Positions 12,194-30,201 of a stretch of DNA of 64,000 nt are shown here, piece after piece (position 1 is the stretch's first letter; every line of letters begins with the position of its first letter). The position numbers and the translations under genes are program-made. Origin of the DNA: Bacilli bacterium (GTDB lineage: Bacteria > Bacillota_I > Bacilli_A > RFN20 > CAG-826); NCBI GenBank assembly GCA_045116995.1, contig JBGUMU010000034.1, positions 15,854 to 79,853 on the forward strand, written 5' to 3'. Under the pieces are notes generated by a model that was not told where the DNA came from, searched no databases, and worked only from the letters and a program-made list of their open reading frames with translations.

Positions 12194-12214
12194 ATAATTT
12201 ATTAAACTCCTTAT

Positions 12215-12253: not shown

Positions 12254-12632
12254 GATGATAGATTTTGCATCACATGTCGCCAATAAGAAATGGGACGTTC
12301 TTATCGCTTTCGCTTTGCACAAATAGTATAGAAAAAAATCGTAAAAATAGTCAAACATTATTTTTGTATACAAAGTATAAAACTCGCGAAAAAACAGCAA
12401 ATAAATAAGCTAAAACGGTTTTGAAGGCCGATAACAATGCCACGACATCAAACATTAGATCCAGGATGTGTTTTCCTTCAAATAAACTGTTGAAAAGACT
12501 TATGAAATAAGAATACTGTTTAACCTATCTTTACGTGCATATTTTGAGCGTTATGTGCAAAATTAATTTGCCATTTAAGAAAGAGATATTATAAAATAAC
12601 CTCGTATATACCACTAATTGGTGTTCGTTAAT

Positions 12633-13008: not shown

Positions 13009-13027
13009 AGCGCGCAAGCGCTTTTTC
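13009..13027 (+). terminator. Rho-independent terminator
   Basis: AGCGC-GCAA-GCGCT hairpin (13009-13022) followed by TTTTT. Confidence 0.7.
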
Positions 13028-13111: not shown

Positions 13112-13180
13112 TAAAAAGCAAAACCGGAGCAATCCGGCGACGCAAAACTATAGGGTCTTAGTATAAGATAGCCAGCAACC
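13112..13180 (+). promoter_or_regulatory. Candidate c-di-GMP-I (GEMM-I) riboswitch aptamer
   Basis: AAAAAGCAAAACCGGAGCAATCCGGCGACGCAAAACTATAGGGTCTTAGTATAAGATAGCCAGCAACC. It contains GCAAAACC, a CCGGA-GCAA-TCCGG hairpin with a GNRA loop, GACGCAAAAC, a second hairpin (CTAT..CTTA-GTA-TAAG-ATAG), then AGCCAGCAACC. The order and wording resemble the GEMM-I consensus (GGCAAACC-hairpin(GAAA)-GGGACGCAAAGCC-hairpin-AGCxGGGxxACC). Not verified with a covariance model. Confidence 0.45.
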
Positions 13181-13214
13181 TCAATCGATTAACTTTGATT
13201 GAGGTTTTATATTT
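13178..13214 (+). terminator. Leader terminator 1 (overlaps the 3' end of the candidate aptamer)
   Basis: ACCTCAATC (13178-13186) pairs with GATTGAGGT (13197-13205), followed by TTTTATATTT. Confidence 0.6.
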
Positions 13215-13354: not shown

Positions 13355-14224
13355 ATGTACGATTATGTTTTGGTAAGAAGACGTAGAAGAAGAAAGATCG
13401 CTGCATTAGTCAGTCTCATCTGTTCAATCGGCGTGACTGCATTAATCATCGTTTCATTCCTCGGACAATACACCGGTACTTTTACCGTTTCTTTAACCAA
13501 CTCATCTGTTAGATTGTCACTATCAGAAACTCAAAGTTTCGCTAATCCAACATCTTATCTTCGTATCGATAAGCTCAACTTATTCGAAGAGTCTACGTAT
13601 GTTAACATCAAAGACGAAGGTTTAGATGATGAAACAAAGGCTTATGACTGTGGCCAACACGAAATCAAAATCAAAAATAAAGATGGTAGTGTAACCACAA
13701 AGCAAGTCCTTTCCTATTTCAAGTACACATTCTATGTGGGTAACTTAGGGAGCAAAGCGGCGCAGTACGACATGCAAATTAAATTGTTGGAATGCTCGCA
13801 ATCCACGGATGGTACTAATAGAACTTTGGATGATACTTTAAGAGTTATGATTTATGAAAACGATATCGATGATGATAACAATTCGGGGGTTCATAATGTA
13901 GACGTCTATGCTAAAGAGAACGCTATAGGAAACATTGATATCGATGATGGCAACACAACACGTGAATTTATTTCTTCTCGTCCTAGAAGAGATTATTTAG
14001 GACCACAAAAAGAAGATGAAGATCACAAATTAGCTATTTCTTTCGAGAAATTGGATCTTATTCACACATACAGCCGAGATGGTTTCTTCGCAGGCCAAAT
14101 CCGTAGATATACATTAGTCTCATGGTTAGAAGGAGAGGATAGAGATTCTCTCAACAAACAAGGTACCCCTGTTGGTGCTACTTTAAAATTAGGAGTTGAA
14201 ATAACTGCTTATGAAAATGAATAA
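13355..14224 (+). CDS. Membrane-anchored paralogue P1 of the TasA-like family (degenerate cleavage motif; candidate anchor or base subunit)
   Basis: N-terminal RRRRRRK plus a TM (IAALVSLICSIGVTALIIVSFL), then QYTGTFTVSLT in place of GT-x-A-W-Y/F. It shares the mid-protein LRVMI box and the C-terminal SWLEGEDRD...LKLGVEITA with the paralogues. Confidence 0.6.
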   Translation: MYDYVLVRRRRRRKIAALVSLICSIGVTALIIVSFLGQYTGTFTVSLTNSSVRLSLSETQSFANPTSYLRIDKLNLFEESTYVNIKDEGLDDETKAYDCGQHEIKIKNKDGSVTTKQVLSYFKYTFYVGNLGSKAAQYDMQIKLLECSQSTDGTNRTLDDTLRVMIYENDIDDDNNSGVHNVDVYAKENAIGNIDIDDGNTTREFISSRPRRDYLGPQKEDEDHKLAISFEKLDLIHTYSRDGFFAGQIRRYTLVSWLEGEDRDSLNKQGTPVGATLKLGVEITAYENE

Positions 14225-15173
14225 AATTATAATTCCTGCTGCAATGTTAGCAGTGGGTGTCGCGCTCGTAGGTTCTGTTTCTAGTACCTTAGCGTGGTAT
14301 CAATACTCAACAAAAGCACAAGCAGCGTATATTGGAACCAGCGCCGGAGTTTCTGAAAACTTACAGATTCAAAATAAAAATGGTGATTGGGTTTCAAATT
14401 TATCTTCCTCCGATATCGCAGATTTAATGGAAACTGGTGTTGGTTCTGAACTCACACCAATCTCTCCTGCTATCGAGGGTAATTTAGATGCTACTTCTGC
14501 TCTACCAAATGGCGGTTTCTATAATAGCGTTGAAACTGGCGTTGGTGGTGTTGAAACATATGGTGATCGTAGAGCAAATAATAAGAATTACGTTGAATTC
14601 ACTTTAAAGATTAGATATTTGAAAACAAATTATGCCAATCCAAGCGATCCTTATGGTTATGCAAATAAAGCTTTAAAATTAGTCGATTTAACTATTCTCG
14701 ATGGATCCACAAACGCAGATTTGTACAAAGCTGTTAGAGTTCATATCTCTTCCGCTTCAGGAAACTACTTATTTATGAAGGATTCTACCACCAATGAAAC
14801 AGTCGAAACCGCCACATATGGTAAACTTGATACCGATAGTCGTGATGGTTTAGACACAGGCTGGGCGTATGAATGGGAATCTTCCCCTGAAATCGTTTAT
14901 GGTAAAGATGGATCAATTCAAACAGCGTACAATTCAAACTATTCCGCTGGTTTAAATAAACAAATCGGTGAACTTCCTGCAAGTAATGAAAACGGTTTAG
15001 CCGTGAAAGTTACTATTTGGCTTGAAGGATGGCAAAAATTATCCGGTGTTCCAACCGGTAACGCTGAAGCATCATCTGGTAGTTCTGCTATGTGGGATCC
15101 AACCGTTTATGCCAACAAGCAATTTAAGGTTGGTATGAGATTCCAAGCTGATGATATTCAACAAAATCCATAA
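14211..15173 (+). CDS. SipW-type signal peptide protein, TasA-like paralogue P2
   Basis: MKMNKIIIPAAMLAVGVALVGSVSSTLAWYQYSTKAQA, then AVRVHIS, then TIWLEGWQ...FKVGMRFQA. Overlaps P1 by 14 nt. Confidence 0.65.
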   Translation: MKMNKIIIPAAMLAVGVALVGSVSSTLAWYQYSTKAQAAYIGTSAGVSENLQIQNKNGDWVSNLSSSDIADLMETGVGSELTPISPAIEGNLDATSALPNGGFYNSVETGVGGVETYGDRRANNKNYVEFTLKIRYLKTNYANPSDPYGYANKALKLVDLTILDGSTNADLYKAVRVHISSASGNYLFMKDSTTNETVETATYGKLDTDSRDGLDTGWAYEWESSPEIVYGKDGSIQTAYNSNYSAGLNKQIGELPASNENGLAVKVTIWLEGWQKLSGVPTGNAEASSGSSAMWDPTVYANKQFKVGMRFQADDIQQNP

Positions 15174-15212
15174 TTGATATTTCGTCAAGGATTCGTTTTA
15201 TTTGGAGAATAA

Positions 15213-16370
15213 ATGATGAAATTCAACAAAGTTAAGTTTGTTGTAGCTGCTTTGTCCATGTGCTGCGGAGCCGCCCTCTTGGGTTCGATTTCAAGCACGA
15301 TTGCGTGGTATCAATTTACCACACGTGTATCTGCTGTTATCGTTGGTGCCTCGACAGGTGAGAAGAGCAATTTGAAAATAAGGATTAAAGGGACCAATAA
15401 TTGGAATTCCGACTTGACCTTTCATGATATCAATGAATATCTTGCGTCAGTCAACAAAGGCCAACAAATTACTCCAATTACTTCAGGATTTATGAATGCA
15501 GATGATCCTATTAAAAAAGATAATAACGATCAAATGATTTTTTACCAAAATCCAGGCGAAGAAGATATTGAAAGAGTACCTTATGATAGCCCTTCCTGGA
15601 GAAGAGCGGATGATTCCATGTATGTCTCAATTCCTTTAGAACTTTCATATATCCAAAAAGTCGAAGGAAGTGAACAATTCTTAGAAAAAGATGTGTATAT
15701 CTCTGATTTGCTAATTCAAGAAGATCGCAAAAATAGCATTAATGCTAAAAAAGATTTATCTGAAGCAATCCGTGTACACATCAGCACTTACCAAAGCAAC
15801 GACAAACAAAATACTGAGTTGAATAGATTAATCTCCAAAAATGGTGGAACCATACTGACCGAAGGCCATTTAGATATTGGTGGTGATGGTGATTTAGATG
15901 AATACATCGAAGGTCATCACGGACCAGACTATGGTTTTATTGATGAAGACGATACCGAAAGATACTATGTCACCTATGGTGAAGGTGTCCAAACAGCTTA
16001 CAGTAATCAATATGACGTTCAAGATAATTCATATAAGACACTTAGTGGTCAAACCATTAATGAAAAGGTTTATCCAACAGTAGTCAAATCTATTGATGAT
16101 TCCAACGTTTTAGATGAAGAAAGTTTTGAATATCAAAAAGAAGGCGAAACCGCCAAAACATCTAAATGTATTGGCAAGACAGTAGCCTTTGAAGGTGAGC
16201 AAAATGAAGCTTACCTCAATGTCGTTATGACGATTTGGGTTGAAGGATGGCAACCATTCCCTTCCCCAACGGCCGCTGATCCGAATGCAAAATCACCTAT
16301 CTGGAATGCATCGGACTATATTGGCTCAATGTTTGATGTCGGCATTGAATTTGCCGTACAACAAGACTAA
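15213..16370 (+). CDS. SipW-type signal peptide protein, TasA-like paralogue P3
   Basis: ..ALLGSISSTIAWYQFTTRVSA, then AIRVHIS, then TIWVEGWQ...FDVGIEFAV. Confidence 0.65.
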   Translation: MMKFNKVKFVVAALSMCCGAALLGSISSTIAWYQFTTRVSAVIVGASTGEKSNLKIRIKGTNNWNSDLTFHDINEYLASVNKGQQITPITSGFMNADDPIKKDNNDQMIFYQNPGEEDIERVPYDSPSWRRADDSMYVSIPLELSYIQKVEGSEQFLEKDVYISDLLIQEDRKNSINAKKDLSEAIRVHISTYQSNDKQNTELNRLISKNGGTILTEGHLDIGGDGDLDEYIEGHHGPDYGFIDEDDTERYYVTYGEGVQTAYSNQYDVQDNSYKTLSGQTINEKVYPTVVKSIDDSNVLDEESFEYQKEGETAKTSKCIGKTVAFEGEQNEAYLNVVMTIWVEGWQPFPSPTAADPNAKSPIWNASDYIGSMFDVGIEFAVQQD

Positions 16371-16488
16371 AAAATCCAGATAAACTCCATAAATATTTAT
16401 TAAACTTTTGAATAAGAAAATATCAGCAAAGTCTCATATACATATACACACATGAGGCTTTGCTGGTGTAAAATGAAAGAAAGGGTAT

Positions 16489-17697
16489 ATGAAAAAGACA
16501 ATTAATCCATTAAAACTAGTTATCGGTATTCTCGGCTTATCGTCAGTCGCTGCTTTAGTGGGCTCAATAAGTGGTACCGTTGCGTGGTACGCATATTCAA
16601 CGCGTGCTCTTATTTCATATACCGGCACTTCTGCGCAATCTAGTGCGCAACTTCAAATTGGCTTGAGAGCTACAGAACGTGTTCCGTTGCTTGACGAAGA
16701 TCTTTTAGTTGATGAAGTAATCGAAGAAAATGGTTATTTTTACTACTTCACACATCTCGGCTCAGGCGGTATGCCATCAAGTGTCATTAATAAATATCTC
16801 GGTGGTAGTGGCTTTGCTACAACTACATTGGAGCCTGTATCAACTTATAGTTATGATGGCAGTCAACCATTTGTTTTGAAAAACTGCCCAACAACAAACG
16901 AACCAGAAGAACGCTCAAATGCGCCAACATCAAAGTATGTTAAGATTCCATTTGCGTTCCGTGTGTTCAATACAATTTCAAACGGTCAAACCGTAACAAC
17001 ATCAGTCGCAAATAAAAACATTTATTTAAGCAATGCTGTCGCACAAGTTAGCAATGAAAAGCTTGGTATCGGTGAAGCAATCCGCTTGTTTGTTGATAGA
17101 ACTGATAATTTAAGCGACTATATTTTTAATCCAAACGCTGCAACTGATGGCTCAACCAAAACCGGTGGTGTCTTAGATCTTTCCGGTAATGGATATTTCG
17201 ATTATGACAACAATCCTTCTCATGGTGATATATATCTCCATGAATACATCTATGGCGATTATTCTTATAAGACTGGCTATGGATTAAATAGTGGCTACGT
17301 AAGTCAAGGTGCAAACGATAGCGACTATCATGACATTAACAAAACAGGTGTTGATACCACAGAAGAAGGATTTGATGGTACAACATTTACAGCTAAACAC
17401 CGTAGAGGAACAATGCATTTAGACTACAGCAATGGCGAAGAATTGGAAGACTACGTGACTTTAGGAACGGCTTCTTACCTTGGCAAGAGTTCTGTATTCC
17501 CAACCAAAACCAATGGTGTCCTCTCTGGTAATAACTTTGTTTGTAAAACAGCTGAATCAAACGTTTCCGAAAAGAATATTGGTTCATTTGACTTAACTGT
17601 TTATATAGAAGGCTGGGATCGTGCCACAATCAATCAACATGGTAATGAATATTTCAATCTCGGCTTAACATTCGAAATCGGCGCAACAAATAGCTAA
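16489..17697 (+). CDS. SipW-type signal peptide protein, TasA-like paralogue P4
   Basis: ..ALVGSISGTVAWYAYSTRALI, then AIRLFV, then TVYIEGWD...FNLGLTFEI. Confidence 0.65.
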   Translation: MKKTINPLKLVIGILGLSSVAALVGSISGTVAWYAYSTRALISYTGTSAQSSAQLQIGLRATERVPLLDEDLLVDEVIEENGYFYYFTHLGSGGMPSSVINKYLGGSGFATTTLEPVSTYSYDGSQPFVLKNCPTTNEPEERSNAPTSKYVKIPFAFRVFNTISNGQTVTTSVANKNIYLSNAVAQVSNEKLGIGEAIRLFVDRTDNLSDYIFNPNAATDGSTKTGGVLDLSGNGYFDYDNNPSHGDIYLHEYIYGDYSYKTGYGLNSGYVSQGANDSDYHDINKTGVDTTEEGFDGTTFTAKHRRGTMHLDYSNGEELEDYVTLGTASYLGKSSVFPTKTNGVLSGNNFVCKTAESNVSEKNIGSFDLTVYIEGWDRATINQHGNEYFNLGLTFEIGATNS

Positions 17698-17708
17698 TGA
17701 GGTTTAAC

Positions 17709-18815
17709 ATGAGAAAAAGAAATCTAATCATTTCTCTCATATTAGGAACTGCAGCACTTACTGTGCTGGCTATTCCTGTGGCCACAATTGCATGGTATGC
17801 AAGTAGCGATCGTCTTCAAGTTAATTCAATTGATTTGGATTTAAGAACAGACGAATCTGTTGGCTTACTTATTGGTACAAGCGCTGATGAAGAAGCTTTT
17901 AAAGAAAAACTTGAAACAAAAGACTTAAAAAAAGTTGGTGAGTTTGTTCCTACTTCCAGTATGTTCCAAGATAGTTGGATGAGCACTAAAAGTGATTTAC
18001 CATTATTCTATGATTCAACATCCGATGTTGCTCCAGATGGCATTCCATCTCTAGAAGTTAGTAATAAAGGCTTTTTCCAACAAAAGTTATATCTTTTAAA
18101 CAACATTGATTATTATGTCACACTAGATACTGAGCAATCCTTTGTCACAAGTGACAAAAACTCTAATCATTTACGCGCGCAGGCTCTTGTGGGTAAAGTC
18201 GGTTCATTAACTGTTGATGAAATCGAAGAAAAATTAAACAACTTAGAGAACAGTATTAGATTCTCCATCCTTGTCAATACTCCAAATTACTACAAATACT
18301 TCATTGTTAATCCAAACAAAAAGGAAAACGAAGTCACATATTACGCTGGTAGATTAGACAACAATGGTGATGGTTATTTCGATACTTTTCCAGCTCTTGA
18401 TAATAACAACCAAGTAATTGAAAAAGAGATTATCTATGGTGAAATCGAAAATCGTAATCAAATCGCTTATGACAATCCTCAAAGCGATACATTAGCTCCT
18501 ATTGAAGATTATGATCCGTTTAGACACAATTTCTTTGGTAACTCATTCGAAGGAAAGAGCAAAGAAACTGCCTACACTTACAATGAACAAAATTCACTCC
18601 AAGCGGGTGTTAAATATAAAGAAGAACCATCTATCTCATTAGATGAAATCGCTTCCGATGACAATCCATTATTAATCCCATGCTATAACGGTGTTCCTAC
18701 CGAAATAGTGTTATCCATCTATTTAGAGGGTTGGGATTTAGATTGTTACAACTCCACAATGGGAGCGAGCTTCAATGCACAATTATCTTTTAAATTATTA
18801 AGGGGGATTATCTAA
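17709..18815 (+). CDS. SipW-type signal peptide protein, TasA-like paralogue P5
   Basis: MRKRNLIISLILGTAALTVLAIPVATIAWYASSDRLQV, then SIRFSI, then SIYLEGWD...FNAQLSFKL. ATG 17709 (GAGG 6 nt upstream) is preferred over ATG 17697. Confidence 0.65.
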   Translation: MRKRNLIISLILGTAALTVLAIPVATIAWYASSDRLQVNSIDLDLRTDESVGLLIGTSADEEAFKEKLETKDLKKVGEFVPTSSMFQDSWMSTKSDLPLFYDSTSDVAPDGIPSLEVSNKGFFQQKLYLLNNIDYYVTLDTEQSFVTSDKNSNHLRAQALVGKVGSLTVDEIEEKLNNLENSIRFSILVNTPNYYKYFIVNPNKKENEVTYYAGRLDNNGDGYFDTFPALDNNNQVIEKEIIYGEIENRNQIAYDNPQSDTLAPIEDYDPFRHNFFGNSFEGKSKETAYTYNEQNSLQAGVKYKEEPSISLDEIASDDNPLLIPCYNGVPTEIVLSIYLEGWDLDCYNSTMGASFNAQLSFKLLRGII

Positions 18816-20350: not shown

Positions 20351-22597
20351 ATGAAAAAAACGAGTAACAGCAATAAGCAGATCAATAGAGCCTACCATAG
20401 TGCGCTTAAGAAAATCATCAAAGGTTCCCACGAAAAGGAAATCTATGATGCTTTAAGCGCGGGTAAGAACTCTTATTTAAGACTTGATCGTTTAGCGTCT
20501 TCCTCGTTTGATAAGAGCTGGATTGAAGTGATTGAAGGCTGTATCTTCGATTTAGGCGAAATCATCGCTAATCCAAGACAACACACTAAAATCACTGGCA
20601 ACTTAACACCAGTTGAACTCGCTAAAAAGGTCACATCAGAATCTGTCCAACACTTAGCGAGCCATACTCAATATATTAAAGAAGTCGATGAATACGGAAA
20701 CGTCATCCCTTCTAAAATCTTATCCATGAGTAGTGATGATGATTTACATACTTATGAAAATAGATTTATCGCTACATTCGTAAGAAGATTATTCTTATTC
20801 ATTTCTAAACGTTATGAATTCGTTTCTAAATTCGCCGAATTACATAACGAAGAAATCCTATACTTTAAAAACAAATCCATCGTCGATGGAGCGGAAGTAG
20901 AAATTGAAACAAAGATTAAAGTCTCTTATAAGAACGAAAACGAAGAAACTAGAATCAACAGTGGCTACGTTGAAAGAATCAAACAAACTAGAGACTATAT
21001 TTCCTATTTCTATAACTCTCCATTTATGAAACAAATGAAGAATGAAAAGGATGTTAGAAATCCAATCGTTCAAACAAACATCATTAGAAAGAACCCTAAA
21101 TATAGACACTGCTACGAAGTGTATAGATTCATCGAAACCTATGACCGTTTAGGCGTGAACTATAAGGTCGATGAAAACTATTCCATGTTCAATAACGAAG
21201 AGTTGGCGGAACTCAATAGAACATTATTCGCTAACTACGTGACCTTAAGAGGTAATGATGGTAGTAGAGAAAAGAAAGTTAACACTAAAGTCTATAAGCC
21301 ACGTATCTTAACAAGCTTAGAAGATGAATCATTTATATATGGTCCATTACTTGAAGGTCCAATTTCTTTTGCACGTGTGGATGATGGTTATCAAGCCTAT
21401 TTAGATAGCAAGATTAAAAAAGACTTACCACTCCATCCAACTAAGAAAGAAAAAGAATATTACGAAGATGAATACGCTGCGAAGAAAGAAAATCAACAAG
21501 ATCAAAAAGCTAAAGCCGATTTATTAAAACGCAGACAAAAAGAAGTTAACGCTTTTGAAAAGAAAGTGAAGAATATCTTAGCAAAACGTGAAGAAGCGAG
21601 ATTAAAACTCATCGAAGCGGAAAAGAACGCCATTAGACAAGAAGAAGAAGACTTAGTCAACGCCATGAGAAGAGAAATCATTGCTGCTTCGCAAAAAGAC
21701 GTTACTGAGATTGTTAACGCTAATAATGGTGGCAAACCATCTAAGAAAGCCGCTAAAGAAGAAGTTAAGGAATATAATCCAACAGTTTCATTTAATGACG
21801 CTGCGGATGAGATTTGGCCACAATTAAATAATCCAACTCCATTACCAGTGGAAGAAAAGCCAGCACCTCAACCAGTTAAACCAGTAATAGTGGAACAACC
21901 AGTTCAAGCAGAATCTGCCCCTGAAGCTAAACCAGCGCCAGCACCTGCTAAAGTTGAAAAGGTCTACATACCAACTGTTAGCTTCAACGAAGCCGCAGAC
22001 GAAATCTGGCCACAACTTAATAATCCAACCCCAATGGCTAAACCAGTGGAAGAAGTTAAAGTGGCCCCAGCCCCTGCTAAGAAGGCTAAAGTGGTTAAAC
22101 CTGCTCCAGTCGTGGAACAAGCACCAACTGAACAAAAACCAGTGGAAGCTAAACCAGCCCCACAACCAGTCAGAGTGGAAAAGGTTTATGTCCCAACAGT
22201 GAGCTTCAATGATGCTGCTGATGAGATTTGGCCACAATTAAATAATCCAAAACCACTTCCTAAAGAAGAGCCTAAACCAGCGCCAGTGCAAAAGCCTGCT
22301 CCTAAAAAAACAGAACCAGCGCCAGCGCCTGCCAAGGAACCTGTTAAGGAAGAAGCAAAGCCAAAAGGCAAACCAATTAAAAAGTATTTCTATAGAAGTG
22401 ATGGTACAGTGGCCATCATCTATAAGAAAGATAAGGCTCATAAGGAAGAAAAACCTGCTCTTACAAAGGAAGAGCCTAAGAAAGAAGAACCTGTTAAGGA
22501 ACAGCCAAAGGCTGAACCTAAAAAGGAAGAAAAGAAAGAAAACAAACCACAAAATGTGGTGAAGAGTAAAAAGACCCGTAAGAAATTTAGAAAGTAA
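20351..22597 (+). CDS. McrC-position partner protein: N-terminal globular domain (DUF2357/McrC-N-like guess), coiled-coil, Pro/Ala/Lys-rich tail with three conserved 19-aa motifs
   Basis: 748 aa with no TM. TYENRFIATFVRRLFLF resembles the ENRF box I associate with McrC/DUF2357 partners (from memory). There is a K/E-rich coiled-coil around aa 380-460. PTVSFN(D/E)AADEIWPQLNNP occurs three times in a PAPxPxK-type linker. No PD-(D/E)xK nuclease motif is recognisable by eye. Confidence 0.5.
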   Translation: MKKTSNSNKQINRAYHSALKKIIKGSHEKEIYDALSAGKNSYLRLDRLASSSFDKSWIEVIEGCIFDLGEIIANPRQHTKITGNLTPVELAKKVTSESVQHLASHTQYIKEVDEYGNVIPSKILSMSSDDDLHTYENRFIATFVRRLFLFISKRYEFVSKFAELHNEEILYFKNKSIVDGAEVEIETKIKVSYKNENEETRINSGYVERIKQTRDYISYFYNSPFMKQMKNEKDVRNPIVQTNIIRKNPKYRHCYEVYRFIETYDRLGVNYKVDENYSMFNNEELAELNRTLFANYVTLRGNDGSREKKVNTKVYKPRILTSLEDESFIYGPLLEGPISFARVDDGYQAYLDSKIKKDLPLHPTKKEKEYYEDEYAAKKENQQDQKAKADLLKRRQKEVNAFEKKVKNILAKREEARLKLIEAEKNAIRQEEEDLVNAMRREIIAASQKDVTEIVNANNGGKPSKKAAKEEVKEYNPTVSFNDAADEIWPQLNNPTPLPVEEKPAPQPVKPVIVEQPVQAESAPEAKPAPAPAKVEKVYIPTVSFNEAADEIWPQLNNPTPMAKPVEEVKVAPAPAKKAKVVKPAPVVEQAPTEQKPVEAKPAPQPVRVEKVYVPTVSFNDAADEIWPQLNNPKPLPKEEPKPAPVQKPAPKKTEPAPAPAKEPVKEEAKPKGKPIKKYFYRSDGTVAIIYKKDKAHKEEKPALTKEEPKKEEPVKEQPKAEPKKEEKKENKPQNVVKSKKTRKKFRK
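21779..22249 (+). repeat. Three in-frame copies of a 57-nt unit encoding PTVSFN(D/E)AADEIWPQLNNP
   Basis: Copies at 21779-21835, 21971-22027 and 22193-22249. The peptide is identical except for one D/E, while the DNA differs at many synonymous sites. Confidence 0.9.
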
Positions 22598-22600
22598 TTT

Positions 22601-23479
22601 ATGAGCGAAGTAGTTAAAGAAAAACGCGTCAAGAAACCAAAAAGTAAGGCCAGAAAAATCGTGGAATGGATCCTTACTGGTATTTTCCTCGTGATTTTCG
22701 GTGTCGTCATGGCCGCTCAAATTGATGGTATGGTCCATAAGAATGATCACTATGGTCAACAAATTAGATTTGGCTATGGTACCTTCATGGTTAAGACCGA
22801 TTCTATGAAACCAGTGTACGGCATTGATACTGCTTTAATTACTTACTTAGAAGACGCTGATAAAATCTACGACCGTTTCCAAAAGGGTGAAACTGTCGAT
22901 ATCACATTCGTCCATGTTCCAGTGGCTAATAACGAATATACCTCTCCTAGAGATAATCCAGAATTAACCGTTAGAACTAATGCTAGTAGTGATAAGCAAG
23001 TGGACGGCATCCCTATGACCCATAGAGTGAGAGAAATCCACATCAATGAAAGTGTCGCTAAAGGTAAAGGTCGTTACACATTCATCACCGCTGGTATCAA
23101 TACCAGAAGTGAATGGATGGGTTGGCAAGAAGGTCAACCAGATATGGTTATTAACCAATATCAAGCGATCACAGAAAAAGAACTATTAGGTAGAGTGGTG
23201 GTTAACTCTCCATTCTTAGGTGGTGTCTTCTCATTTGTGAGTTCTGTATTTGGTTTATTAATCTTATTACTCATCCCAGCATTTTATTTAGTCATCACTA
23301 GTGTGATTGATATATTTAAGGCTTATAAAGAGCCTGAAGAAGCTAAAGAAGGAGCAGGAGCCACACCAAATAGTGGTGGTACCGTTACTCTTTCCGAAGC
23401 GGACAAAAAGAGACTTAAAGAGCAACTATTAGAAGAAATGATTGCCAAGAAGAAAGGAGAAAGCAATGAAAACAAGTAG
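22601..23479 (+). CDS. sipW: SipW-like (S26B, ER/archaeal-type) signal peptidase I with an enlarged extracytoplasmic domain
   Basis: N-terminal TM. VKTDSMKPVY can be compared with SipW SGSMEP (Ser codon 22802-22804). QKGETVDITF, then MTHRVREI compared with VTHRIVDI (catalytic His). A C-terminal second TM (FGLLILLLIPAFYLVITSVIDIF) as in SipW. The GDNN Asp box reads AGINT. Confidence 0.75.
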   Translation: MSEVVKEKRVKKPKSKARKIVEWILTGIFLVIFGVVMAAQIDGMVHKNDHYGQQIRFGYGTFMVKTDSMKPVYGIDTALITYLEDADKIYDRFQKGETVDITFVHVPVANNEYTSPRDNPELTVRTNASSDKQVDGIPMTHRVREIHINESVAKGKGRYTFITAGINTRSEWMGWQEGQPDMVINQYQAITEKELLGRVVVNSPFLGGVFSFVSSVFGLLILLLIPAFYLVITSVIDIFKAYKEPEEAKEGAGATPNSGGTVTLSEADKKRLKEQLLEEMIAKKKGESNENK

Positions 23480-25007
23480 AGGTCGATTAACTGCAGTTAT
23501 CATTACTGGTATCCTTCTCATCGTCGCCTTTGTCCTCGCGGGTATGGCGATGATTGGTCATGTCTTCGGTGATAACACCCCATTAGCGAATATCATGAAC
23601 GCTTCAGCCATTGGTATGACTGTTTTATTCGTTAGTAGTGTTTATCTTTTAGTTAGTAATCTTTCCATGATTAAGACTTTACAAGATGATAACGAATATA
23701 ACTTAGGTGTTAGAAGTGCCTTTAATAACATGTATGCCTTCCAAAAACGTGTGGAAGTCCTTTCTAGATTAAATAAAATCACCAAGAGACAAGAACACAT
23801 TATCGCCTTTACATTCTCCTCTCTTGTTGTTTCTCAAAACGTTAATAGAAACCATGAAATCTATTTAATCAACAATCACATCGCTAACTTCTTAAATGAT
23901 TTACCAACAAAGATTAACGCTAAGAAGAGAGACTTTGTTTATGCCTTCTCTCGTGGTTCTTTCTTAATCTACTGTGCAAAACAAAATGAACAATCCATTC
24001 AAAACATCTGCGAAATCATCGCTAAAGATATTTATGACTTTGGTGAACAAAACTGCCGTCATATCTGGGTCCAACCATTCTTCGGTGTCACCCGTGTCTA
24101 TGATAGTGAACTTTTAACTCACCAAATTGAAAACGCATTATTAGCTAGAGATAATTCTGAAAGAAACTTTGAAACAGTCACTTATTATCAAGAAACATTC
24201 CGTAAAAGTGTGGCCGCTAACGACATTGAAGAATTAACTCAAGCTTTAGAAAATAAAGAATTCGTTGTCTACTATCAACCAAAGTTTGACTTAGCTAAAA
24301 GACAATTTATTTCTTCAGAAGCTTTAATTAGATGGAACTCCAAGAAGTACGGCTTATTAGCGCCTACTAAGTTCTTAAATAAAGCCGAAGCTATTGGTTT
24401 AATCCATGATATTGATATCTATGTCTTAAGACAAGTTTGTGAAGATTTAAATGAACTTATTAGAAGAGGTAGAAGAGTCTTACCAGTCTCCGTTAACTTC
24501 TCCTTATATGAATTCTATAGTGCGAACTTCTTAGATACCATCATGGGTATCTTAGATGAATTCCATGTTCCAACAAATTTAATTGAAATTGAAATTACAG
24601 AAGCGACATCACAAGCTAACCAATTCTTATCCATCTCCATTATTAAGAAACTTAAAGAAAACGGTATTCGAGTCTTAATGGATGACTTTGGTATTGGTTT
24701 CTCTAACGTCGGTAACTTAAAGAAGATTCCATTCGACGTTGTTAAGATTGATAAATCATTTATTGATGGCATTGTTAACGACACTAAATCACGTGAAATC
24801 GTGAGATTCTTAATTGGTCTTTGTAAGATCAACGGTATGGAAGTCGTTGCCGAAGGTGTTGATAACAAAGAACAAGTTGAAATATTAAAGAAGGCGAAGT
24901 GCGATACAATTCAAGGTTTCTATTATTCTGAAGCTCTTGAAAAGAAAGCTTTCGAAAGATTCTTAGATAATAACCCATTTGAAAAGAAGGAGGGCGTTAA
25001 AGCATGA
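23466..25007 (+). CDS. Membrane-bound EAL-domain c-di-GMP phosphodiesterase with degenerate GGDEF-like middle domain
   Basis: Two N-terminal TMs. The EAL set appears complete: YYQPKF, SEALIRW, SVNFS, EIEITE, MDDFGIGFSN, VKIDKSF, VAEGVD, IQGFYYS. The GGDEF position reads SRGSF. ATG 23466 (AAAGGAG RBS) overlaps the sipW end by 14 nt. Confidence 0.85.
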   Translation: MKTSRGRLTAVIITGILLIVAFVLAGMAMIGHVFGDNTPLANIMNASAIGMTVLFVSSVYLLVSNLSMIKTLQDDNEYNLGVRSAFNNMYAFQKRVEVLSRLNKITKRQEHIIAFTFSSLVVSQNVNRNHEIYLINNHIANFLNDLPTKINAKKRDFVYAFSRGSFLIYCAKQNEQSIQNICEIIAKDIYDFGEQNCRHIWVQPFFGVTRVYDSELLTHQIENALLARDNSERNFETVTYYQETFRKSVAANDIEELTQALENKEFVVYYQPKFDLAKRQFISSEALIRWNSKKYGLLAPTKFLNKAEAIGLIHDIDIYVLRQVCEDLNELIRRGRRVLPVSVNFSLYEFYSANFLDTIMGILDEFHVPTNLIEIEITEATSQANQFLSISIIKKLKENGIRVLMDDFGIGFSNVGNLKKIPFDVVKIDKSFIDGIVNDTKSREIVRFLIGLCKINGMEVVAEGVDNKEQVEILKKAKCDTIQGFYYSEALEKKAFERFLDNNPFEKKEGVKA

Positions 25008-25747
25008 TCATGATTATTGGTAGCCAACATGATGATATCCTCTATTTCGAAAGTGTTATCACTAACAAAAGAGAAGAACTCATCATGGGCAAATTCAAAG
25101 TGACCATTGGTACCATCTTTAACCAAGCGGTCATGTTAGTGGATCAAGTTAAATCTAACTACTTAAGTAGCGCTCTTACTTTATATTTGATTGAAAAATA
25201 CTTCGTCATCCTTGTTTTAGTGGTGGGCCGTTGTGTGGCTTACACGAAAGACTTAAAACCATTAGACATCGTTATCTCTAAGCATGTCGTCTTAGGGGAC
25301 GTTGACCAAGTTAATGAAGATAACGTTAAATACGGACAAATCCCAGGCTTTGAACAAGTCTTTGATGCCTCTGAAGACGTTGTCTCCTATATTGAAAGTG
25401 CTTTTGAAAAGAGAACATACTCTGTCTTTAAAGAAGCTAACTTCATTTCCACATCTGTGGACTACCATAAGAAAGAACAAATCTATGATATCCATGAATT
25501 TGATCATATCTTAGGCTATGACACTAATGTGGTCTTTGACACCAATACCGGTGGTGTTGCTGTCGCTTGTAACTTAACTAAAGTGCCTTTCGTCTCGATT
25601 AAAGTCGTGGAAAGATACTTAGAAAAGAATAGTGATGTCAATACATACTTAAAAGCGATGAAAGAATATGTGAATATCGGTAAAGCTGTTGTTACCTGTA
25701 TCGGTGATATTGGCCGTAACGAAATCATCACAGAAGGAGGTAAGTAA
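25004..25747 (+). CDS. MTA/SAH-nucleosidase (PNP_UDP_1) homologue with degenerate active site
   Basis: Collinear with E. coli MtnN: MIMIIGSQHDD vs MKIGIIGAMEEE; LKPLDIVIS vs LKVGDIVVS; KYGQIPGFEQVF vs EYGQLPGCPAGF; VPFVSIKVVERY vs VPFVVVRAISDV. The catalytic or ligand positions (E12, SGIGK, TGSAGG, EME, SD197) read D, QVKSN, VGRCVA, DTN, VE. The ATGA overlap with the upstream stop is at 25004-25007. Confidence 0.6.
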   Translation: MIMIIGSQHDDILYFESVITNKREELIMGKFKVTIGTIFNQAVMLVDQVKSNYLSSALTLYLIEKYFVILVLVVGRCVAYTKDLKPLDIVISKHVVLGDVDQVNEDNVKYGQIPGFEQVFDASEDVVSYIESAFEKRTYSVFKEANFISTSVDYHKKEQIYDIHEFDHILGYDTNVVFDTNTGGVAVACNLTKVPFVSIKVVERYLEKNSDVNTYLKAMKEYVNIGKAVVTCIGDIGRNEIITEGGK

Positions 25748-25748
25748 T

Positions 25749-28700
25749 ATGGCATTCTATAATAGAAACCGTTCCATTAAAATCTTCTTCCGTTTCGTCA
25801 CAATTTTCCCAATTGTGTTCCTTAACGTTTTAGTCATTGTGATGACACTTTTAACATTCTTCTATGCAAGAACTGATAACTTCGCTTTCTTCTTAGCGAT
25901 TCTCATCTTCGGTGGTGTAATGATTATCTTATATATCGTTCAAACCGTCTACATCATGACGCAGTTTAGAAAGGTCTTTATTAATGGTCTTTATGGTGTC
26001 ACTGTTTCTAACTTTGAAAATATCGCTAGAAATGAAAATGACTTCCGTGAATATCCAAGTAAGCAATACATTGAAATCAACGCTTTAAACGAACACGTTG
26101 ATACATTAAGAAAGAGCCTATTAGGCGCGACCATTATTCCAAGCAACAATGACTTTGATGATATTGAATTAGATTATATCGATAAGGAAAAGAACCTTAT
26201 TACTTTTGAATCTTTCAAAAGAGAATTAGAAAACATCATCTTCAAATCCCAAAACTATCGTAACATCATCATCGAAACATATTATGAATTTGAAGAAGAA
26301 GGCTTAACCAAAAAGAATATCGACTATGTCCTTAAAGTCTTAAAAGATAACTTCTTTGATTATGAAAGCCCATTATATGTCCTTGGTGAAGACAATAAGA
26401 GTGTTTATCTCTACTTACCAAGAATTGATTCTTTAAGCAAAATTAGAGAACAATTAGAAACATGTATGAGAAGTGCTTCTATTTCTAAACGTTTAACTGA
26501 AGGTATTACTCCATTAACCGCACATTTCTCTGTGGTCTGTTACCCATATAGTGACGTTCCAGAATTAATCCCAGACTTACGTTATGCAAAACGTCAAGGT
26601 AACGATATTTTCTTCTATTTACCAAACCGTTTAAATACTTTAAAGAACAATGCGATCTTAAGATATTCCACAAACCTTAACTCTATGAGTAAAATCATCG
26701 CTCCATTATCCACGATGAGGTTTGGTTCTGCTTACACTAAGGAAAATACTAAGATTATCCAAGAGACAATTAAAACCACCGCCCAATACTTTGGTATCAA
26801 CTATGCAGGTATCATCGCTTTAGATGCGGTTAATAAACGTTATGTCATCGCTTATCAAGCAAATGATGACGAAATCAACCCATTAAGTCACGATGGCACT
26901 GTGAACCAGGCTTTAATTAGCATTATGGACGAAACTAAGGACGATAATGGTTCTTACTACTTCTCAATCAGGAATCACGCAAATAACGCCCTAGGACGTC
27001 ATTTAGACCGCATTGGCCTTGAAAGTGGTTTCTATTACGTCATTAAGAGTAATGATGTAGTGCAAGGTGTCATTTATTTCTTTAATAAAAATAAAGAGCT
27101 TAAGTTCGATTCTTATATCCAAGAATCCATGTTAATGCTTTGTACAAGAATTAGCTCCTTCTTAATTAGTGAGAAGAGAGACGTTGAAATCGAAAGCTCA
27201 TTTGATGAAATCGACGCCATTCTTAAAGTTGCTGACTTCTCGACATACCGTGTCAGTGCGGATGACTTCACTTTATTAAATGGTTCTCAAACCATGAAGA
27301 ACTTATTCCCTGAGATTAAATATGGTGAAAAGTGCTATAAGACAATGTATGGCTTAGATGCCCCTTGTAAAGACTGCCCACTTCTCACTGGTAATAAGAA
27401 AATGGTGAAGTATGGACGTGATAACTATGAGACATCATTGTTATTATCTGACCACCATAACATTTATCGTGTTTTATCCATTAAGAATATCTACTCCCAT
27501 AAATCACATGGTCGTTATAACCAAGATCTTCTCATCAACAGTTTCCATACCCTTATTGAAAACTTAGAAGATATCTATGCGATGAATGGTAAAGGTTACT
27601 TATTATTACTTAGAATCGATAACTTAGAACAACTCGTTGAAGAACATGGTTCTGAAGGCACAATTACAATTCTTCGTGACTTCTCTAAACGTGTTAAAAA
27701 AGCCCACCGTGGTTTAGAAAATATCTATTACTACACTAACCAATTCTTAGCGATGCTATTCTACGAATATGGTCAAACTGACATCTTAGATGAATGTGAA
27801 AAGATCTACGCTATCGCTAAAAACGTTGATAAGTCTGCTGACTATGTTTTAGATATCACCTTCTTACCAGTCAGTTATCCTCGTGTTTATCCAAATGCCA
27901 CAAGCTTAATTAAACAAGCCGATGTCTTCTCCACAAGAGGTCATTATGATGTAAATAAAGACTTCATCTATTTCGATGAAAGTAACTATTCAAGAAGTGC
28001 TAATAGAGAAGAATACATTCTTTCTATTATTAAGAAAGCCTTCAGTGATAAGACATACGAAATCAACTTACAACCAATGGTTAATGCTGGTGATAAGCAA
28101 ATCTATGGTGCGGAATTACTTTTACGTATTTCTGATGATTATCGTAATGTCGCAATGCGTACTGATGAAGTCGTTAATGTCGCGGCGAAACACAATCAAA
28201 TTGGTATTATTTCTCACGCCCTTCTTGATTTCACCGCTTCCTTATATAAGGAATATGGTGCGATGTTCTTCTCATCTTTAGGCTTTAGAAGATTTGGTCT
28301 TAATACTGACTATTCCTTCTTTACCGATAAGAACTTCGCTAAAGATATTAAAAAGTATATTGAAAGTCTTAAACTTCCAAAGCACTTCATCGCTTTCGAA
28401 ATTCCTGAAAACGATGTCTCTACCCATATCGATGAATTTAAGCAAATTGGTAAAGTGCTTAGAGATCTCAATATCGTCTTAGTGTGTGACCAATATACTG
28501 GCCGTTATATCTCCGTTGAAATCTTAAAAGAAATCGGTTTCGATGAAGTGAAGATTTCTCGTAACCTTGTCAATCACATCGATAGTGATAACCAACGCTA
28601 TAACGCCTTAAAAGCTTTATTACAATTAATCCGTCGTTTCAACATGAAAGCTTCTATCGTCGGTGTTGAAAACATTGACCAATACTTACTCATTAAAGAA

Positions 28701-28814
28701 GCTGATGCTGATGTCTTACTACAAGGCTTCTACTTCTTCCGTCCATTAGAAAAGCAAGCTTTAATTGAAGCCTTAAGAGGAACGAATAAATATAAGAAAG
28801 CTGATGAAGAATAA
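25749..28814 (+). CDS. Large membrane-anchored signalling protein: two degenerate GGDEF-like domains, a GAF-like segment, a Cys motif, and a C-terminal degenerate EAL domain (probable c-di-GMP receptor)
   Basis: Two N-terminal TMs. The first GGDEF-like block has GEDNK in the signature position. The second is YLLLLRIDNLEQLVEEHGSEGTITILRDFSKRV...YYTNQFLAMLF. CYKTMYGLDAPCKDCP is C-x11-C-x2-C. The EAL-like end reads LQPMV, GAELLLR, CDQYTGRY (for DDFGTGYS), VKISR (for KID), VGVEN (for EGVE), LQGFYF. ATG 25749 (GGAGG RBS) is preferred over the 25689 extension. Confidence 0.7.
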   Translation: MAFYNRNRSIKIFFRFVTIFPIVFLNVLVIVMTLLTFFYARTDNFAFFLAILIFGGVMIILYIVQTVYIMTQFRKVFINGLYGVTVSNFENIARNENDFREYPSKQYIEINALNEHVDTLRKSLLGATIIPSNNDFDDIELDYIDKEKNLITFESFKRELENIIFKSQNYRNIIIETYYEFEEEGLTKKNIDYVLKVLKDNFFDYESPLYVLGEDNKSVYLYLPRIDSLSKIREQLETCMRSASISKRLTEGITPLTAHFSVVCYPYSDVPELIPDLRYAKRQGNDIFFYLPNRLNTLKNNAILRYSTNLNSMSKIIAPLSTMRFGSAYTKENTKIIQETIKTTAQYFGINYAGIIALDAVNKRYVIAYQANDDEINPLSHDGTVNQALISIMDETKDDNGSYYFSIRNHANNALGRHLDRIGLESGFYYVIKSNDVVQGVIYFFNKNKELKFDSYIQESMLMLCTRISSFLISEKRDVEIESSFDEIDAILKVADFSTYRVSADDFTLLNGSQTMKNLFPEIKYGEKCYKTMYGLDAPCKDCPLLTGNKKMVKYGRDNYETSLLLSDHHNIYRVLSIKNIYSHKSHGRYNQDLLINSFHTLIENLEDIYAMNGKGYLLLLRIDNLEQLVEEHGSEGTITILRDFSKRVKKAHRGLENIYYYTNQFLAMLFYEYGQTDILDECEKIYAIAKNVDKSADYVLDITFLPVSYPRVYPNATSLIKQADVFSTRGHYDVNKDFIYFDESNYSRSANREEYILSIIKKAFSDKTYEINLQPMVNAGDKQIYGAELLLRISDDYRNVAMRTDEVVNVAAKHNQIGIISHALLDFTASLYKEYGAMFFSSLGFRRFGLNTDYSFFTDKNFAKDIKKYIESLKLPKHFIAFEIPENDVSTHIDEFKQIGKVLRDLNIVLVCDQYTGRYISVEILKEIGFDEVKISRNLVNHIDSDNQRYNALKALLQLIRRFNMKASIVGVENIDQYLLIKEADADVLLQGFYFFRPLEKQALIEALRGTNKYKKADEE

Positions 28815-28824
28815 ATAATCTTCA

Positions 28825-30201
28825 TTAGCCAATTAAGAAATCTTCTTCTACGAAGCGATATTTGCTTTGGTCATCAAAGCGCATTTTGCTACCCAATAAT
28901 TGTAAGAATGTAATTGGGCCTAATCGACCAATAAACATCAAAAGAATAATAATGATCTTGCTACCATAGCTTAAGTGTGGAGTGACACCCGCACTGACAC
29001 CAACAGTACCGAAAGCGGAGAATACTTCATACGCTAAGGCACTGGCTTTTGTGCTTTCTAAGCCCAAGGCTTGTACATCCATCTTAGCCTCAAAGGCATA
29101 AACACCAATAAAGCTTAAGAAGATAACAGCGACACCAAGAATAACTAAGGACATCGCTTTAACGATAACTTCGTTAGAATATCTTCTATGGAAGGAAGTA
29201 ACCTTACGTCCAGTTAAATAGCAAATCATAGCGAGTACGATAATATACAAAGTAGTGGTCTTAACGCCACCAGCGGTACCTAATGGGTTACCACCGAAGA
29301 ACATTAAGAAACAAGAGAAGACTTTATTTACAACACTTAACTTATCTTGGTCTAAAGTCGCAAAGCCTGCGGTTCTACATGTCACAGATTGGAATAAAGC
29401 GTCAAACGGACGTTGGAATCCTTGACCCATCCAGAACACAAAGAAACCAGTGATAATTAAAGTACCTGTCATCAATAAAGAAATCTTAGTGAAAACACGT
29501 AATTGTGAGAAATTGCGTTTCGCAAAGATATCCATAACCACAAGGAATGAAATGCCACCTAATACGATAAGCACCATGATATAGGAGCATAAATAGTAAT
29601 AGGCCCAATTTGGTAATGAATCAATGAAACCACCGTTACCTCTAATAAGAGAAGCGTTCCCAAATAAATCGAATCCAGCGTTGTTATAAGAAGAAATAGA
29701 AGTGAATAATGAGTTCCATAAGCCACTTCCAACATTTTCAGAATATTGAAGGAAGACAGGTAAACCTAAAAGGAAACCAATTAATTCGCAAGAGAAGGAG
29801 ATTAAGATAATCTTTCTTACGAAAGTGGTGACCTGCGCCATATCTTCATTGTTAACCATTAAGGAAATGAATAAACGATCTTTAAATTGTAATTTACGGT
29901 TAAAGATAGTGAAGACGAATGTAAAGATAGTAATGAATCCTAAACCACCAACTTGGATGAGGAGTAATAAAATTAGTTGACCCGCAAATGTTAATTCAGT
30001 AGCAATACCTTGATGGAAACAGTTAAGACCAGTCACACAAGTGGCGGATGTTGCCAAGAATAAGCAATCAATGTAATTACCATAGTCATTGGCGGTTCTA
30101 GAGAATGGGAACATTAAAAGAACTGAGCCAATCAAGATGATAATGACAAATGAAAGAATAACGAGTAAGTATGGATTCAAACGTTTCTTTTGATTGTTCA
30201 T
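28825..30201 (-). CDS. TrkH/KtrB-family potassium uptake permease
   Basis: Repeated M-P-M pore-loop signatures (ATSATCVTGL, SSYNNAGFD, VTCRTAGFA, SAFGTVGVSAG). Polytopic. The start may be ATG 30201 or TTG 30237. Confidence 0.85.
   Translation of the reverse strand: MNNQKKRLNPYLLVILSFVIIILIGSVLLMFPFSRTANDYGNYIDCLFLATSATCVTGLNCFHQGIATELTFAGQLILLLLIQVGGLGFITIFTFVFTIFNRKLQFKDRLFISLMVNNEDMAQVTTFVRKIILISFSCELIGFLLGLPVFLQYSENVGSGLWNSLFTSISSYNNAGFDLFGNASLIRGNGGFIDSLPNWAYYYLCSYIMVLIVLGGISFLVVMDIFAKRNFSQLRVFTKISLLMTGTLIITGFFVFWMGQGFQRPFDALFQSVTCRTAGFATLDQDKLSVVNKVFSCFLMFFGGNPLGTAGGVKTTTLYIIVLAMICYLTGRKVTSFHRRYSNEVIVKAMSLVILGVAVIFLSFIGVYAFEAKMDVQALGLESTKASALAYEVFSAFGTVGVSAGVTPHLSYGSKIIIILLMFIGRLGPITFLQLLGSKMRFDDQSKYRFVEEDFLIG

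Follow-up and report, generated by a model that had tools for sequence, protein, structure and literature searches.

In the 64,000-nucleotide stretch of Bacilli bacterium DNA analysed here (contig JBGUMU010000034.1 of assembly GCA_045116995.1, positions 15,854 to 79,853; hereafter the window), we followed up the gene at 20351–22597, which encodes a protein of 748 aa and lies directly downstream of a gene for an McrB-like GTPase; its product is termed the McrC-like protein below. This gene belongs to an 11-gene unit of ∼15.5 kb, in which five genes for paralogous proteins (F0–F4) are followed by those for the McrB-like GTPase, the McrC-like protein, a signal peptidase, an EAL-domain protein, a PNP_UDP phosphorylase-family protein and a second EAL-domain protein. 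The genes of the unit overlap or lie no more than 118 nt apart, and the unit is bounded at both ends by terminator-like hairpins. The features of the locus, including a sixth F paralog encoded beside the unit, are as follows.

11093–12229, reverse strand: sixth paralog, F5, 378 aa, with one N-terminal hydrophobic segment and a strong terminator of its own (11073–11046)
13177–13206, forward strand: strong terminator-like hairpin upstream of F0, with a 12-pair stem; 5' boundary of the unit
13355–18815, forward strand: five paralogs, F0–F4, of 289, 320, 385, 402 and 372 aa, each with one N-terminal hydrophobic segment
18817–20340, forward strand: McrB-like AAA+ GTPase, 507 aa, with one transmembrane helix (aa 61–79) followed by a charged helix (aa 83–122)
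20351–22597, forward strand: McrC-like gene, ATG start, 748 aa, with a DUF2357 N-domain, a long charged helix and a disordered, motif-bearing tail
22601–23479, forward strand: SEC11/SipW-type signal peptidase of 292 aa; hydrophobic segments at the termini, charged C-terminal tail conserved
23442–25007, forward strand: EAL-domain protein, 521 aa, listed with a TTG start and a 38-nt overlap with the preceding gene
25004–25747, forward strand: 247-aa protein of the PNP_UDP_1 phosphorylase family, flanked by the EAL genes
25689–28814, forward strand: second EAL-domain protein, 1041 aa, listed with a TTG start and a 59-nt overlap with the preceding gene
28863–28881, forward strand: terminator-like hairpin just past the last EAL gene; 3' boundary of the unit

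The McrC-like protein itself is laid out as a folded N-terminal domain, a long charged helix and a disordered tail, with the following parts.

20351–21250, forward strand: folded N-terminal domain, aa 1 to ∼300, of helices and long β-strands (AlphaFold2 model)
20558–20827, forward strand: DUF2357 match (Pfam), aa 70–159
20843–20932, forward strand: predicted long β-hairpin, aa 165–178 and 181–194 (secondary structure of the model)
21440–21724, forward strand: 95-residue charged helix, aa 364–458, coiled coil or single α-helix (composition and heptad test)
21731–22594, forward strand: disordered tail, aa 461–748, 288 residues rich in Pro, Lys, Ala, Glu and Val (composition)

A sequence-only reading of the window had likened the ENRF box of this protein, contained in TYENRFIATFVRRLFLF (aa 134–150), to that of DUF2357 proteins, and this resemblance was borne out: aa 1–380 alone matched PF09823 (DUF2357) with an E-value of 2.6e-6 and 27.3 bits, above the curated gathering cut-off of 23.3 bits, with aa 70–159 aligned to profile positions 98–188 of 251. 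The full-length protein did not match DUF2357 in the Pfam scan, presumably because of its biased tail, and gave nothing meaningful in NCBIfam, PADLOC or the PDB sequences either. The same family was matched by 15 of 47 homologs (best E-value 1.6e-8), as well as by one distant member at 2.8e-10. When 209 diverse sequences of the McrC-like family were aligned, P120, Y135, E136, N137 and R154 were found to be conserved in 100 %, R138 in 93 %, and H101, P238 and T242 in at least 97 %. An AlphaFold2 model of aa 1–380, built from a 47-sequence alignment, had a mean pLDDT of 78.5 and placed helices at residues 8–37, 55–73, 135–161, 198–221, 249–263 and 282–300 in addition to long β-strands, with a single β-strand past residue 225 and disorder at residues 319–342.

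The McrC-like protein is without a PD-(D/E)xK nuclease, in keeping with the sequence-only reading, which had found none by eye. Profile and sequence searches with Pfam, NCBIfam, PADLOC and the PDB returned no nuclease family, and hence no trace of the clear, intact nuclease domain that the reading had named as evidence to the contrary; nor was a degenerate nuclease found with Pfam in aa 160–345 or aa 224–345 alone. A profile of 47 McrC-like homologs retrieved from the PDB only low-complexity and coiled-coil noise (e.g. huntingtin, ribosomal L24), and the AlphaFold2 model of aa 1–380 has no space for an αβββαβ nuclease core. The string VDGAEVEIETK (aa 178–188), a D...ExK candidate that had already been viewed with doubt, was rejected as a catalytic motif because it forms the turn and second strand of the predicted 14+14-residue β-hairpin and is poorly conserved, with D179 retained in 31 %, E184 in 50 %, E186 in 50 % and K188 in 34 % of the 209 family members. 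Additionally, K188 was considered as the equivalent of Lys157 of E. coli McrC, since it has the same 50-residue spacing from the NR box, and was dropped in view of this low conservation.

The stop codon of the McrB-like gene and the start of the McrC-like gene are separated by 10 nt. In the PDB, sequence matches of the McrB-like protein were confined to McrB chains, with an E-value of 6e-4 for the single sequence and of 8.7e-6 to 2e-5 for the family profile against 6hz4, 6ut6 and 7vsr, and a Pfam AAA_5 match was also obtained. The suggestion that the McrC-like gene sits in the position of an McrC partner to an McrB-like motor was therefore sound: a DUF2357 protein is encoded immediately past a GTPase that matches only McrB among solved structures. 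Invariant among 29 McrB-like orthologs are the Walker A motif GISGTGKTS, the Walker B motif DEMNLAR, N348, D350 and D351, the last three within the signature GTANNDDST (N348-N-D350-D351), which can be read as NxD or NxxD. The transmembrane helix at aa 61–79 has a mean hydropathy of 3.26, such that the N-terminus of the protein is a membrane anchor and, unlike that of restriction McrB, holds no DNA-binding domain. Heptad periodicity of the charged helix that follows (aa 83–122) was not significant. Pfam FtsB/DivIC was not matched by the anchor; weak matches to LapA_dom and DUF4083 were seen over the transmembrane region.

Directly downstream, the gene at 22601–23479 by its sequence specifies a signal peptidase of the ER/archaeal/SipW type. 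A profile of 27 orthologs matched the SEC11C and SEC11A catalytic subunits with E-values of ∼1e-12, and Ser68-Met69 and His141 are invariant among the orthologs; the single sequence gave a partial match only to NCBIfam SipW. The cytoplasmic C-terminal extension of this protein (window 23350–23479, aa ∼250–292) is a charged helix with the family consensus ...KERLKxExLEEM, and is a candidate contact for the helices of the McrB-like and McrC-like proteins or for the tail motifs described below. The remaining three genes of the unit were assigned by Pfam matches to EAL, a c-di-GMP phosphodiesterase domain (5.9e-67 and 3e-31), and to PNP_UDP_1, of the nucleoside phosphorylase/nucleosidase superfamily (1.1e-8).

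The F proteins encoded at the 5' end of the unit are presumed, from their sequences, to be secreted subunits of a fibre or matrix. A conserved G-S-x-S-x-T-x-A-W motif is found in F1–F4, with G21, S22, S24, T26, A28 and W29 invariant in the family, and a C-terminal WLEG(W/E)(D/Q) box is common to the F proteins. The model of F1 (pTM 0.81) is β-rich, with low confidence in its first 45 residues and a short strand just past the presumed cleavage site. In these respects the locus resembles the SipW–TasA system of B. subtilis and the SipW–BsaA system of C. perfringens, where a SEC11/SipW-type peptidase is likewise encoded with several paralogous secreted β-rich proteins; furthermore, the F signal peptides may share with theirs a T-x-A-(W/A)-(Y/F) junction motif. 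F5 is kept beside the operon in most loci, lying on the same strand and upstream of F0 in most other species, and is possibly the major subunit, separately expressed. Its sequence is rich in Ala, Thr, Gly and Ser and falls in the most GC-rich kilobase of the window (0.41).

We found 393 close homologs of the N-domain of the McrC-like protein, every one of them in metagenome assemblies of Bacilli or of Erysipelotrichaceae type. Within a library clustered at 50 % identity, matches numbered 1642 clusters at an E-value ≤ 1e-3, 1215 at ≤ 1e-10 and 665 at ≤ 1e-30. A scan of one genome per species detected relatives in 125 species and allowed 80 loci to be retrieved, nearly all from rumen or gut metagenome-assembled genomes classed as 'Bacilli bacterium', Erysipelotrichaceae, Candidatus Enterosoma or Candidatus Enteromonas. 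The close set used here contains 83 loci, of which 80 represent different Bacilli species of the gut or rumen, and the counts that follow cover those loci with enough contig. Wherever contig sufficed in this set, the gene order F, McrB-like, McrC-like, peptidase, EAL, PNP_UDP, EAL was identical. The McrB-like gene lay directly upstream in 75/75 close loci and in 53/53 loci of a more distant subfamily, F genes were found upstream in 60/60 and 32/34, and EAL genes were present in 34/34 and 13/21, respectively. The peptidase gene was directly downstream in 69/69 close and 34/58 distant loci; in the other distant loci it sits just ahead of the McrB-like gene. Identity of the N-domain to that of the window protein ranged from 41 to 94 % in the close set and from 30 to 40 % in the distant subfamily, which derives from bioreactor, digester and gut metagenomes and keeps the core of F, peptidase, McrB and McrC genes. 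No nuclease gene was conserved near the operon in the neighbourhoods of related loci. As the gene order is fixed over N-domain identities of 41–94 % and no nuclease is conserved, the pattern is that of a vertically inherited structural operon, and not of a mobile defence island or mobile restriction system. As such, the implicit frame of the sequence-only reading, that of restriction or defence with an exchanged effector, did not hold up, given the membrane anchor, the conserved secretion operon and the lack of a conserved nuclease.

The arrangement fits that of a module named in a census of McrBC systems as CoCoPALM, to which one paragraph is devoted, with its analysis deferred to a later paper (Bell et al., 2024; eLife, PMC11090510). 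CoCoPALM is described there as an McrB-like GTPase fused to an FtsB-like transmembrane and coiled-coil segment, together with a coiled-coil McrC homolog and an associated signal peptidase (PMC11090510). In agreement with this, an N-terminal transmembrane segment precedes a charged helix in the GTPase of the window, the signature of which is readable as NxD (N348-N-D350), the DUF2357 homolog has a long helical extension and no nuclease, and a signal peptidase is closely linked to the pair. Pfam did not reproduce the FtsB homology of the anchor. The text supplementary files of Bell et al. (2024) hold no CoCoPALM entries, and our literature search found CoCoPALM nowhere beyond that paper and nothing relevant on McrB with SipW or on McrB-like proteins with a pilus. 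The window gene therefore fits the nuclease-less McrC homolog of a module that has been named but has no published analysis or experiment, and what is new here beyond Bell et al. is the motif-bearing disordered tail, the F paralogs, the linkage to EAL and PNP_UDP genes, and the strict synteny in gut and rumen Bacilli.

Compared with canonical McrC (E. coli and T. gammatolerans; PDB 6hz4, 6ut6), the window protein has in common a finger-type N-domain of the DUF2357/McrC-N superfamily and a gene placed right after that of an McrB-type GTPase. It differs in that the PD-(D/E)xK domain is replaced by the charged helix and the 288-aa disordered tail, in that the gene lies in a secretion and presumed fibre operon rather than in a restriction locus, and in that no sequence or Foldseek similarity to the solved McrC chains can be detected; the partner GTPase, moreover, differs from that of canonical McrBC in being membrane-anchored and without a DNA-binding domain. 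CoCoNuT systems are on the same NxD branch of McrB-like GTPases (Bell et al., 2024; PMC11090510), and their McrC homologs are often without an active nuclease, as here, and contain coiled coils. In contrast, the nucleases (HEPN and others), helicases and RNA-binding domains that define CoCoNuT systems are absent from, or not conserved in, the neighbourhoods studied here.

We consider it probable, on balance, that the GTPase pair seen here derives from McrBC, no longer takes part in DNA restriction and acts on the cytoplasmic side of the membrane, within an operon for secreted proteins processed by SipW. By analogy with its homolog McrB, the McrB-like protein would form a GTP-hydrolysing ring or hexamer, in which each subunit would be tethered by the one transmembrane helix seen in its sequence. 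The DUF2357 domain would bind in or on this ring and tune GTP hydrolysis as the McrC finger domain does, a role suggested by family membership and by the coupling of the two genes. In solved McrC, the finger domain combines a bundle of helices with a long β-sheet stalk, and the stalk enters the McrB ring (PMC7680126); the predicted N-domain, with its helices, long β-strands and 14+14-residue hairpin, is qualitatively like this, and the modelled hairpin at aa 165–194, the residues of which are weakly conserved across the 209 family sequences, is a candidate counterpart of the stalk. If the solved McrBC complexes (PMC7680126) are a guide, the helical bundle and β-hairpin stalk would enter the ring, and the invariant YENR box and R154 would be candidate contact or activating residues. 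GTP hydrolysis would be tuned by way of a conserved basic residue, for which R138 and R154, both on the predicted helix 135–161, are the candidates. In place of the McrC nuclease, the charged helix and the tail, with its conserved motifs (motif A in three copies, one motif B and a basic peptide at the C-terminus), would dock partners, candidates for which are the cytoplasmic tail of the signal peptidase, the membrane and the EAL proteins. The output, as gene linkage and nothing else would suggest, might be the control or energising of F-protein processing and of assembly into a surface fibre or matrix under c-di-GMP. The likely role of the McrC-like protein would thus be that of a GTPase-activating plug and an adaptor for fibre biogenesis.

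A number of results weigh against this reading and are gathered here. The comparison with McrC structures put forward in the sequence-only reading, made by Foldseek with the aa 1–380 model, gave no PDB match at an E-value ≤ 0.001, the best matches being kinesin and TolC with TM-scores of ∼0.1, and an hhalign comparison of the McrC-like family with E. coli McrC returned a 16-residue chance match only (probability 0.9 %). The charged helix at aa 364–458 is free of Pro and Gly, with 46 % of its residues charged (aa 371–460: E 16 %, A 14 %, K 14 %), so that the K/E-rich segment noted earlier is confirmed; its designation as a coiled coil is not, since in a Fourier test the heptad power did not rise above that of shuffled sequences. 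Because of this lack of significant periodicity, the segment could equally well be a lone charged α-helix.

The nature of the F proteins, and with it the presumed formation of fibres, is the weakest link in the argument. The F-family profile found no match in the PDB, Pfam searches of 49 members found none either (Peptidase_M73 included), and the F1 model had no significant fold match in Foldseek and did not retrieve TasA; weak Foldseek matches of the family were to Gram-positive pilins, PapH and the Sulfolobus thread filament, with probabilities ≤ 0.25. In an hhalign comparison with an approximate TasA sequence, F-family residues 1–30 aligned to TasA residues 1–29 with a probability of 47 % (ALVGSVSGTvAWy against ALVGG--GTWAAF), an alignment that would put cleavage after A28. 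The likeness to TasA is confined to this signal-peptide region, and no SipW-related signal-peptide model was matched in an NCBIfam scan of the F N-termini. The F proteins thus differ from TasA and BsaA in having no detectable sequence or fold similarity to them beyond the signal peptide, and the known TasA and BsaA operons differ from the present one in having no McrBC-like GTPase pair. To our knowledge, TasA-type systems manage without a cytoplasmic GTPase. The same is true of the BsaA-type system (PMC11580942).

Finally among these counterpoints, the McrB-like protein matched the PADLOC candidate-defence model PDC-M26A at 4e-40. This match, ancestry in Type IV restriction, and the precedent of CoCoNuT systems, in which nuclease-less McrC homologs are known and other nucleases take over, are what could be said for a pair still engaged in defence. 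A membrane-tethered pair of this kind would sense nucleic acid or phage at the envelope, for example with the fibre as a receptor, and the tail would recruit an effector or trigger abortive infection. We regard such a function as improbable: no nuclease or known effector is conserved in the neighbourhood, the McrC-like protein matched no PADLOC model, the McrB-like N-terminus is an anchor in place of a DNA-binding domain, and a fixed gene order across 80 species at 41–94 % N-domain identity looks like a vertically inherited housekeeping surface structure. Furthermore, the PDC-M26 candidate may take in CoCoPALM-type GTPases that are not defence genes.

The tail of the McrC-like protein (aa 461–748) is made up of K (18 %), P (18 %), E (12 %), A (12 %) and V (10 %), with K reaching 35 % in aa 700–748, and contains the strings KPAPQPVKP (∼aa 503–511), KPAPAPAK (aa 527–534) and KEEPKKEEP (aa 706–714) picked out in the sequence-only reading. 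Bacterial H1-like proteins carry PAKK-type tails, which the K/P/A-rich window tail and its very basic end resemble, and one might accordingly suppose a histone-H1-like, nucleic-acid-binding tail by which the protein would still target DNA or the nucleoid without cutting. We find this scarcely credible in the light of the orthologs. Identity to them is 63–94 % in the N-domain, 37–87 % in the charged helix and 25–56 %, with many gaps, in the tail, and among 71 complete orthologs the tail varies in length from 113 to 818 aa and in net charge from −146 to +46, many tails being strongly acidic. As tail length and charge vary so widely, the Pro/Ala/Lys composition characterises this subclade rather than the family as a whole, a point that speaks against DNA binding of the histone type; it is short motifs that are conserved, rather than basic composition. 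These motifs are located as follows.

21770–21841, forward strand: motif A, copy 1, aa 474–497, EYNPTVSFNDAADEIWPQLNNPTP
21962–22033, forward strand: motif A, copy 2, aa 538–561, VYIPTVSFNEAADEIWPQLNNPTP
22184–22255, forward strand: motif A, copy 3, aa 612–635, VYVPTVSFNDAADEIWPQLNNPKP
22367–22429, forward strand: motif B, aa 673–693, GKPIKKYFYRSDGTVAIIYKK, probable β-hairpin island (ortholog tail alignment)
22535–22594, forward strand: basic C-terminal peptide, aa 729–748, ending in KENKPQNVVKSKKTRKKFRK

Motif A, with the 24-aa consensus (Y)xPTV(S/T)FxxAAxEIWPQLxNPxP, is present in three copies in the window protein. Between copies, 9–15 of 60 core nucleotides differ (15–25 %), and the codon differences comprise 5–11 synonymous as against 1–2 non-synonymous changes. 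Because nearly all differences are synonymous, the copies are old and under purifying selection. We counted 62 instances of the motif in 25 proteins, and among the 71 complete orthologs it is found in 12, being clade-specific. A PqqD match on motif A (E-value 0.002–0.02, below the cut-off) was set aside as a chance likeness of a short helix. Motif B is kept in close orthologs, with GRKIKKFFKRSDGTVAIIYKK found in loci L005, L006, L009 and L011, and some orthologs have a second copy. The C-terminus of the window protein reads ...SKKTRKKFRK, and a '(S/T)RK(K/G)F(R/K)K'-type end is shared by many orthologs. The tail is thus not uniform: the ∼290-aa low-complexity region described in the sequence-only reading corresponds well to the 288-aa biased region, but motif A, in its three copies, and a further two conserved islands are embedded in it. 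Likewise, the proposal of a flexible peptide-display tail was partly vindicated, in that conserved short motifs within fast-evolving linkers fit it, and the sequence of the tail is most aptly read as that of a flexible linker with candidate docking motifs.

In roughly one-third or more of the complete orthologs, the C-terminus is formed by a conserved mini-domain of ∼45 aa (e.g. loci L001, L014, L016, L022 and L023, as well as L027, L028, L030, L031 and others), with the consensus IPGRFIVKTxxGYYVxxxxFSxxKxxAxVFDDFNxAxxIKxxxGGKVIKL. A Pfam scan of this mini-domain gave no match. The window protein does not have the mini-domain as such, and its motif B (KYFYRSDGTVAIIYKK) may be a remnant of the mini-domain's first hairpin.

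Repeated, multivalent motifs in a flexible tail are typical of scaffolds, and the GTPase pair could accordingly be a regulatory switch and not a motor. As a nucleotide-dependent scaffold, with the tail motifs for docking, it would gate either the EAL phosphodiesterases or the signal peptidase and so time F release without mechanical work. The constant presence of EAL genes (34/34 close and 13/21 distant loci) and the conserved charged cytoplasmic C-terminal tail of the signal peptidase would suit such a switch. The tail motifs, in contrast, are clade-specific (motif A in 12/71) and many orthologs have the other C-terminal mini-domain in their place, whilst EAL and peptidase genes stay constant. 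The present data do not separate the switch from the motor version, and we hold the switch to be possible, if rather unlikely.

The composition of the tail also bears on its location. Wall-spanning regions of Gram-positive surface proteins are proline-rich, and the PAPAP/KPxP composition of the tail resembles them. The tail, or the entire C-terminal half, could by this token be exported or passed across the envelope to serve as a wall-spanning tether, or as the base or a displayed element of the F fibre, with the McrB-like ring as a protein-handling motor rather than a DNA motor. In support of this, in one homolog, P0305 (2240 aa), a like N-domain and charged helix lead into at least 15 Big_2 Ig-like domains, and neither a transmembrane segment nor a signal peptide is present. 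P0305 is, however, a single cluster representative and may be a mis-assembly or gene-calling fusion; if real, it hints at a tail end that may be turned outwards. Its layout runs from an N-terminal disordered region through a DUF2357-like domain (aa ∼210–560) and the charged helix to the Big_2 array. We judge export to be very improbable because the window protein has no export signal, its hydropathy profile revealing no hydrophobic segment, transmembrane helix or signal peptide, and its N-domain must meet a cytoplasmic GTPase. If true, it would mean that restriction machinery has been turned into a novel type of apparatus for secretion or pilus assembly.

McrBC is the textbook GTP-driven restriction enzyme. 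Should the GTPase pair indeed serve SipW-processed secreted proteins, as we favour, this would stand as a clear example of defence machinery taken over for the biogenesis of the cell surface, involving a large branch of McrBC (at least 1,215 clusters at 50 % identity, E-value ≤ 1e-10) without nuclease or DNA-binding domain that has gained a membrane anchor and is tied to SipW-type secretion operons. The module is core and vertically inherited in abundant uncultured Bacilli of the rumen and gut, and therefore likely matters for their attachment or biofilm formation. Handles for testing this are provided by the 11-gene unit with F5, the YENR box and R154, the catalytic Ser and His of the peptidase, the three selected tail motifs and the link to c-di-GMP turnover.

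Several further observations were made on genes in and around the operon. The true starts of both EAL genes (23442–25007 and 25689–28814) may sit further downstream than listed, and in the 1041-aa protein ∼780 residues with no assigned domain precede the EAL domain. The PNP_UDP_1 gene is kept between the EAL genes, 64 orthologs having been recovered across the 83 close loci. In one locus (L003, 18053–18882), a nucleotidyltransferase/HepT (HEPN) toxin–antitoxin pair lies downstream of the operon; it was rejected as a part of the system, as it is not conserved in other loci. Loci of the distant subfamily (L085–L164) usually contain two SipW-like genes, which precede the McrB-like gene and follow the McrC-like gene, respectively, and their EAL genes tend to sit upstream of the F genes and not downstream. 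Finally, between F5 and F0 the window encodes, on the forward strand at 12618–13001, a small membrane protein of 127 aa with a charged C-terminal helix, which is followed by terminator-like hairpins (13009–13022).

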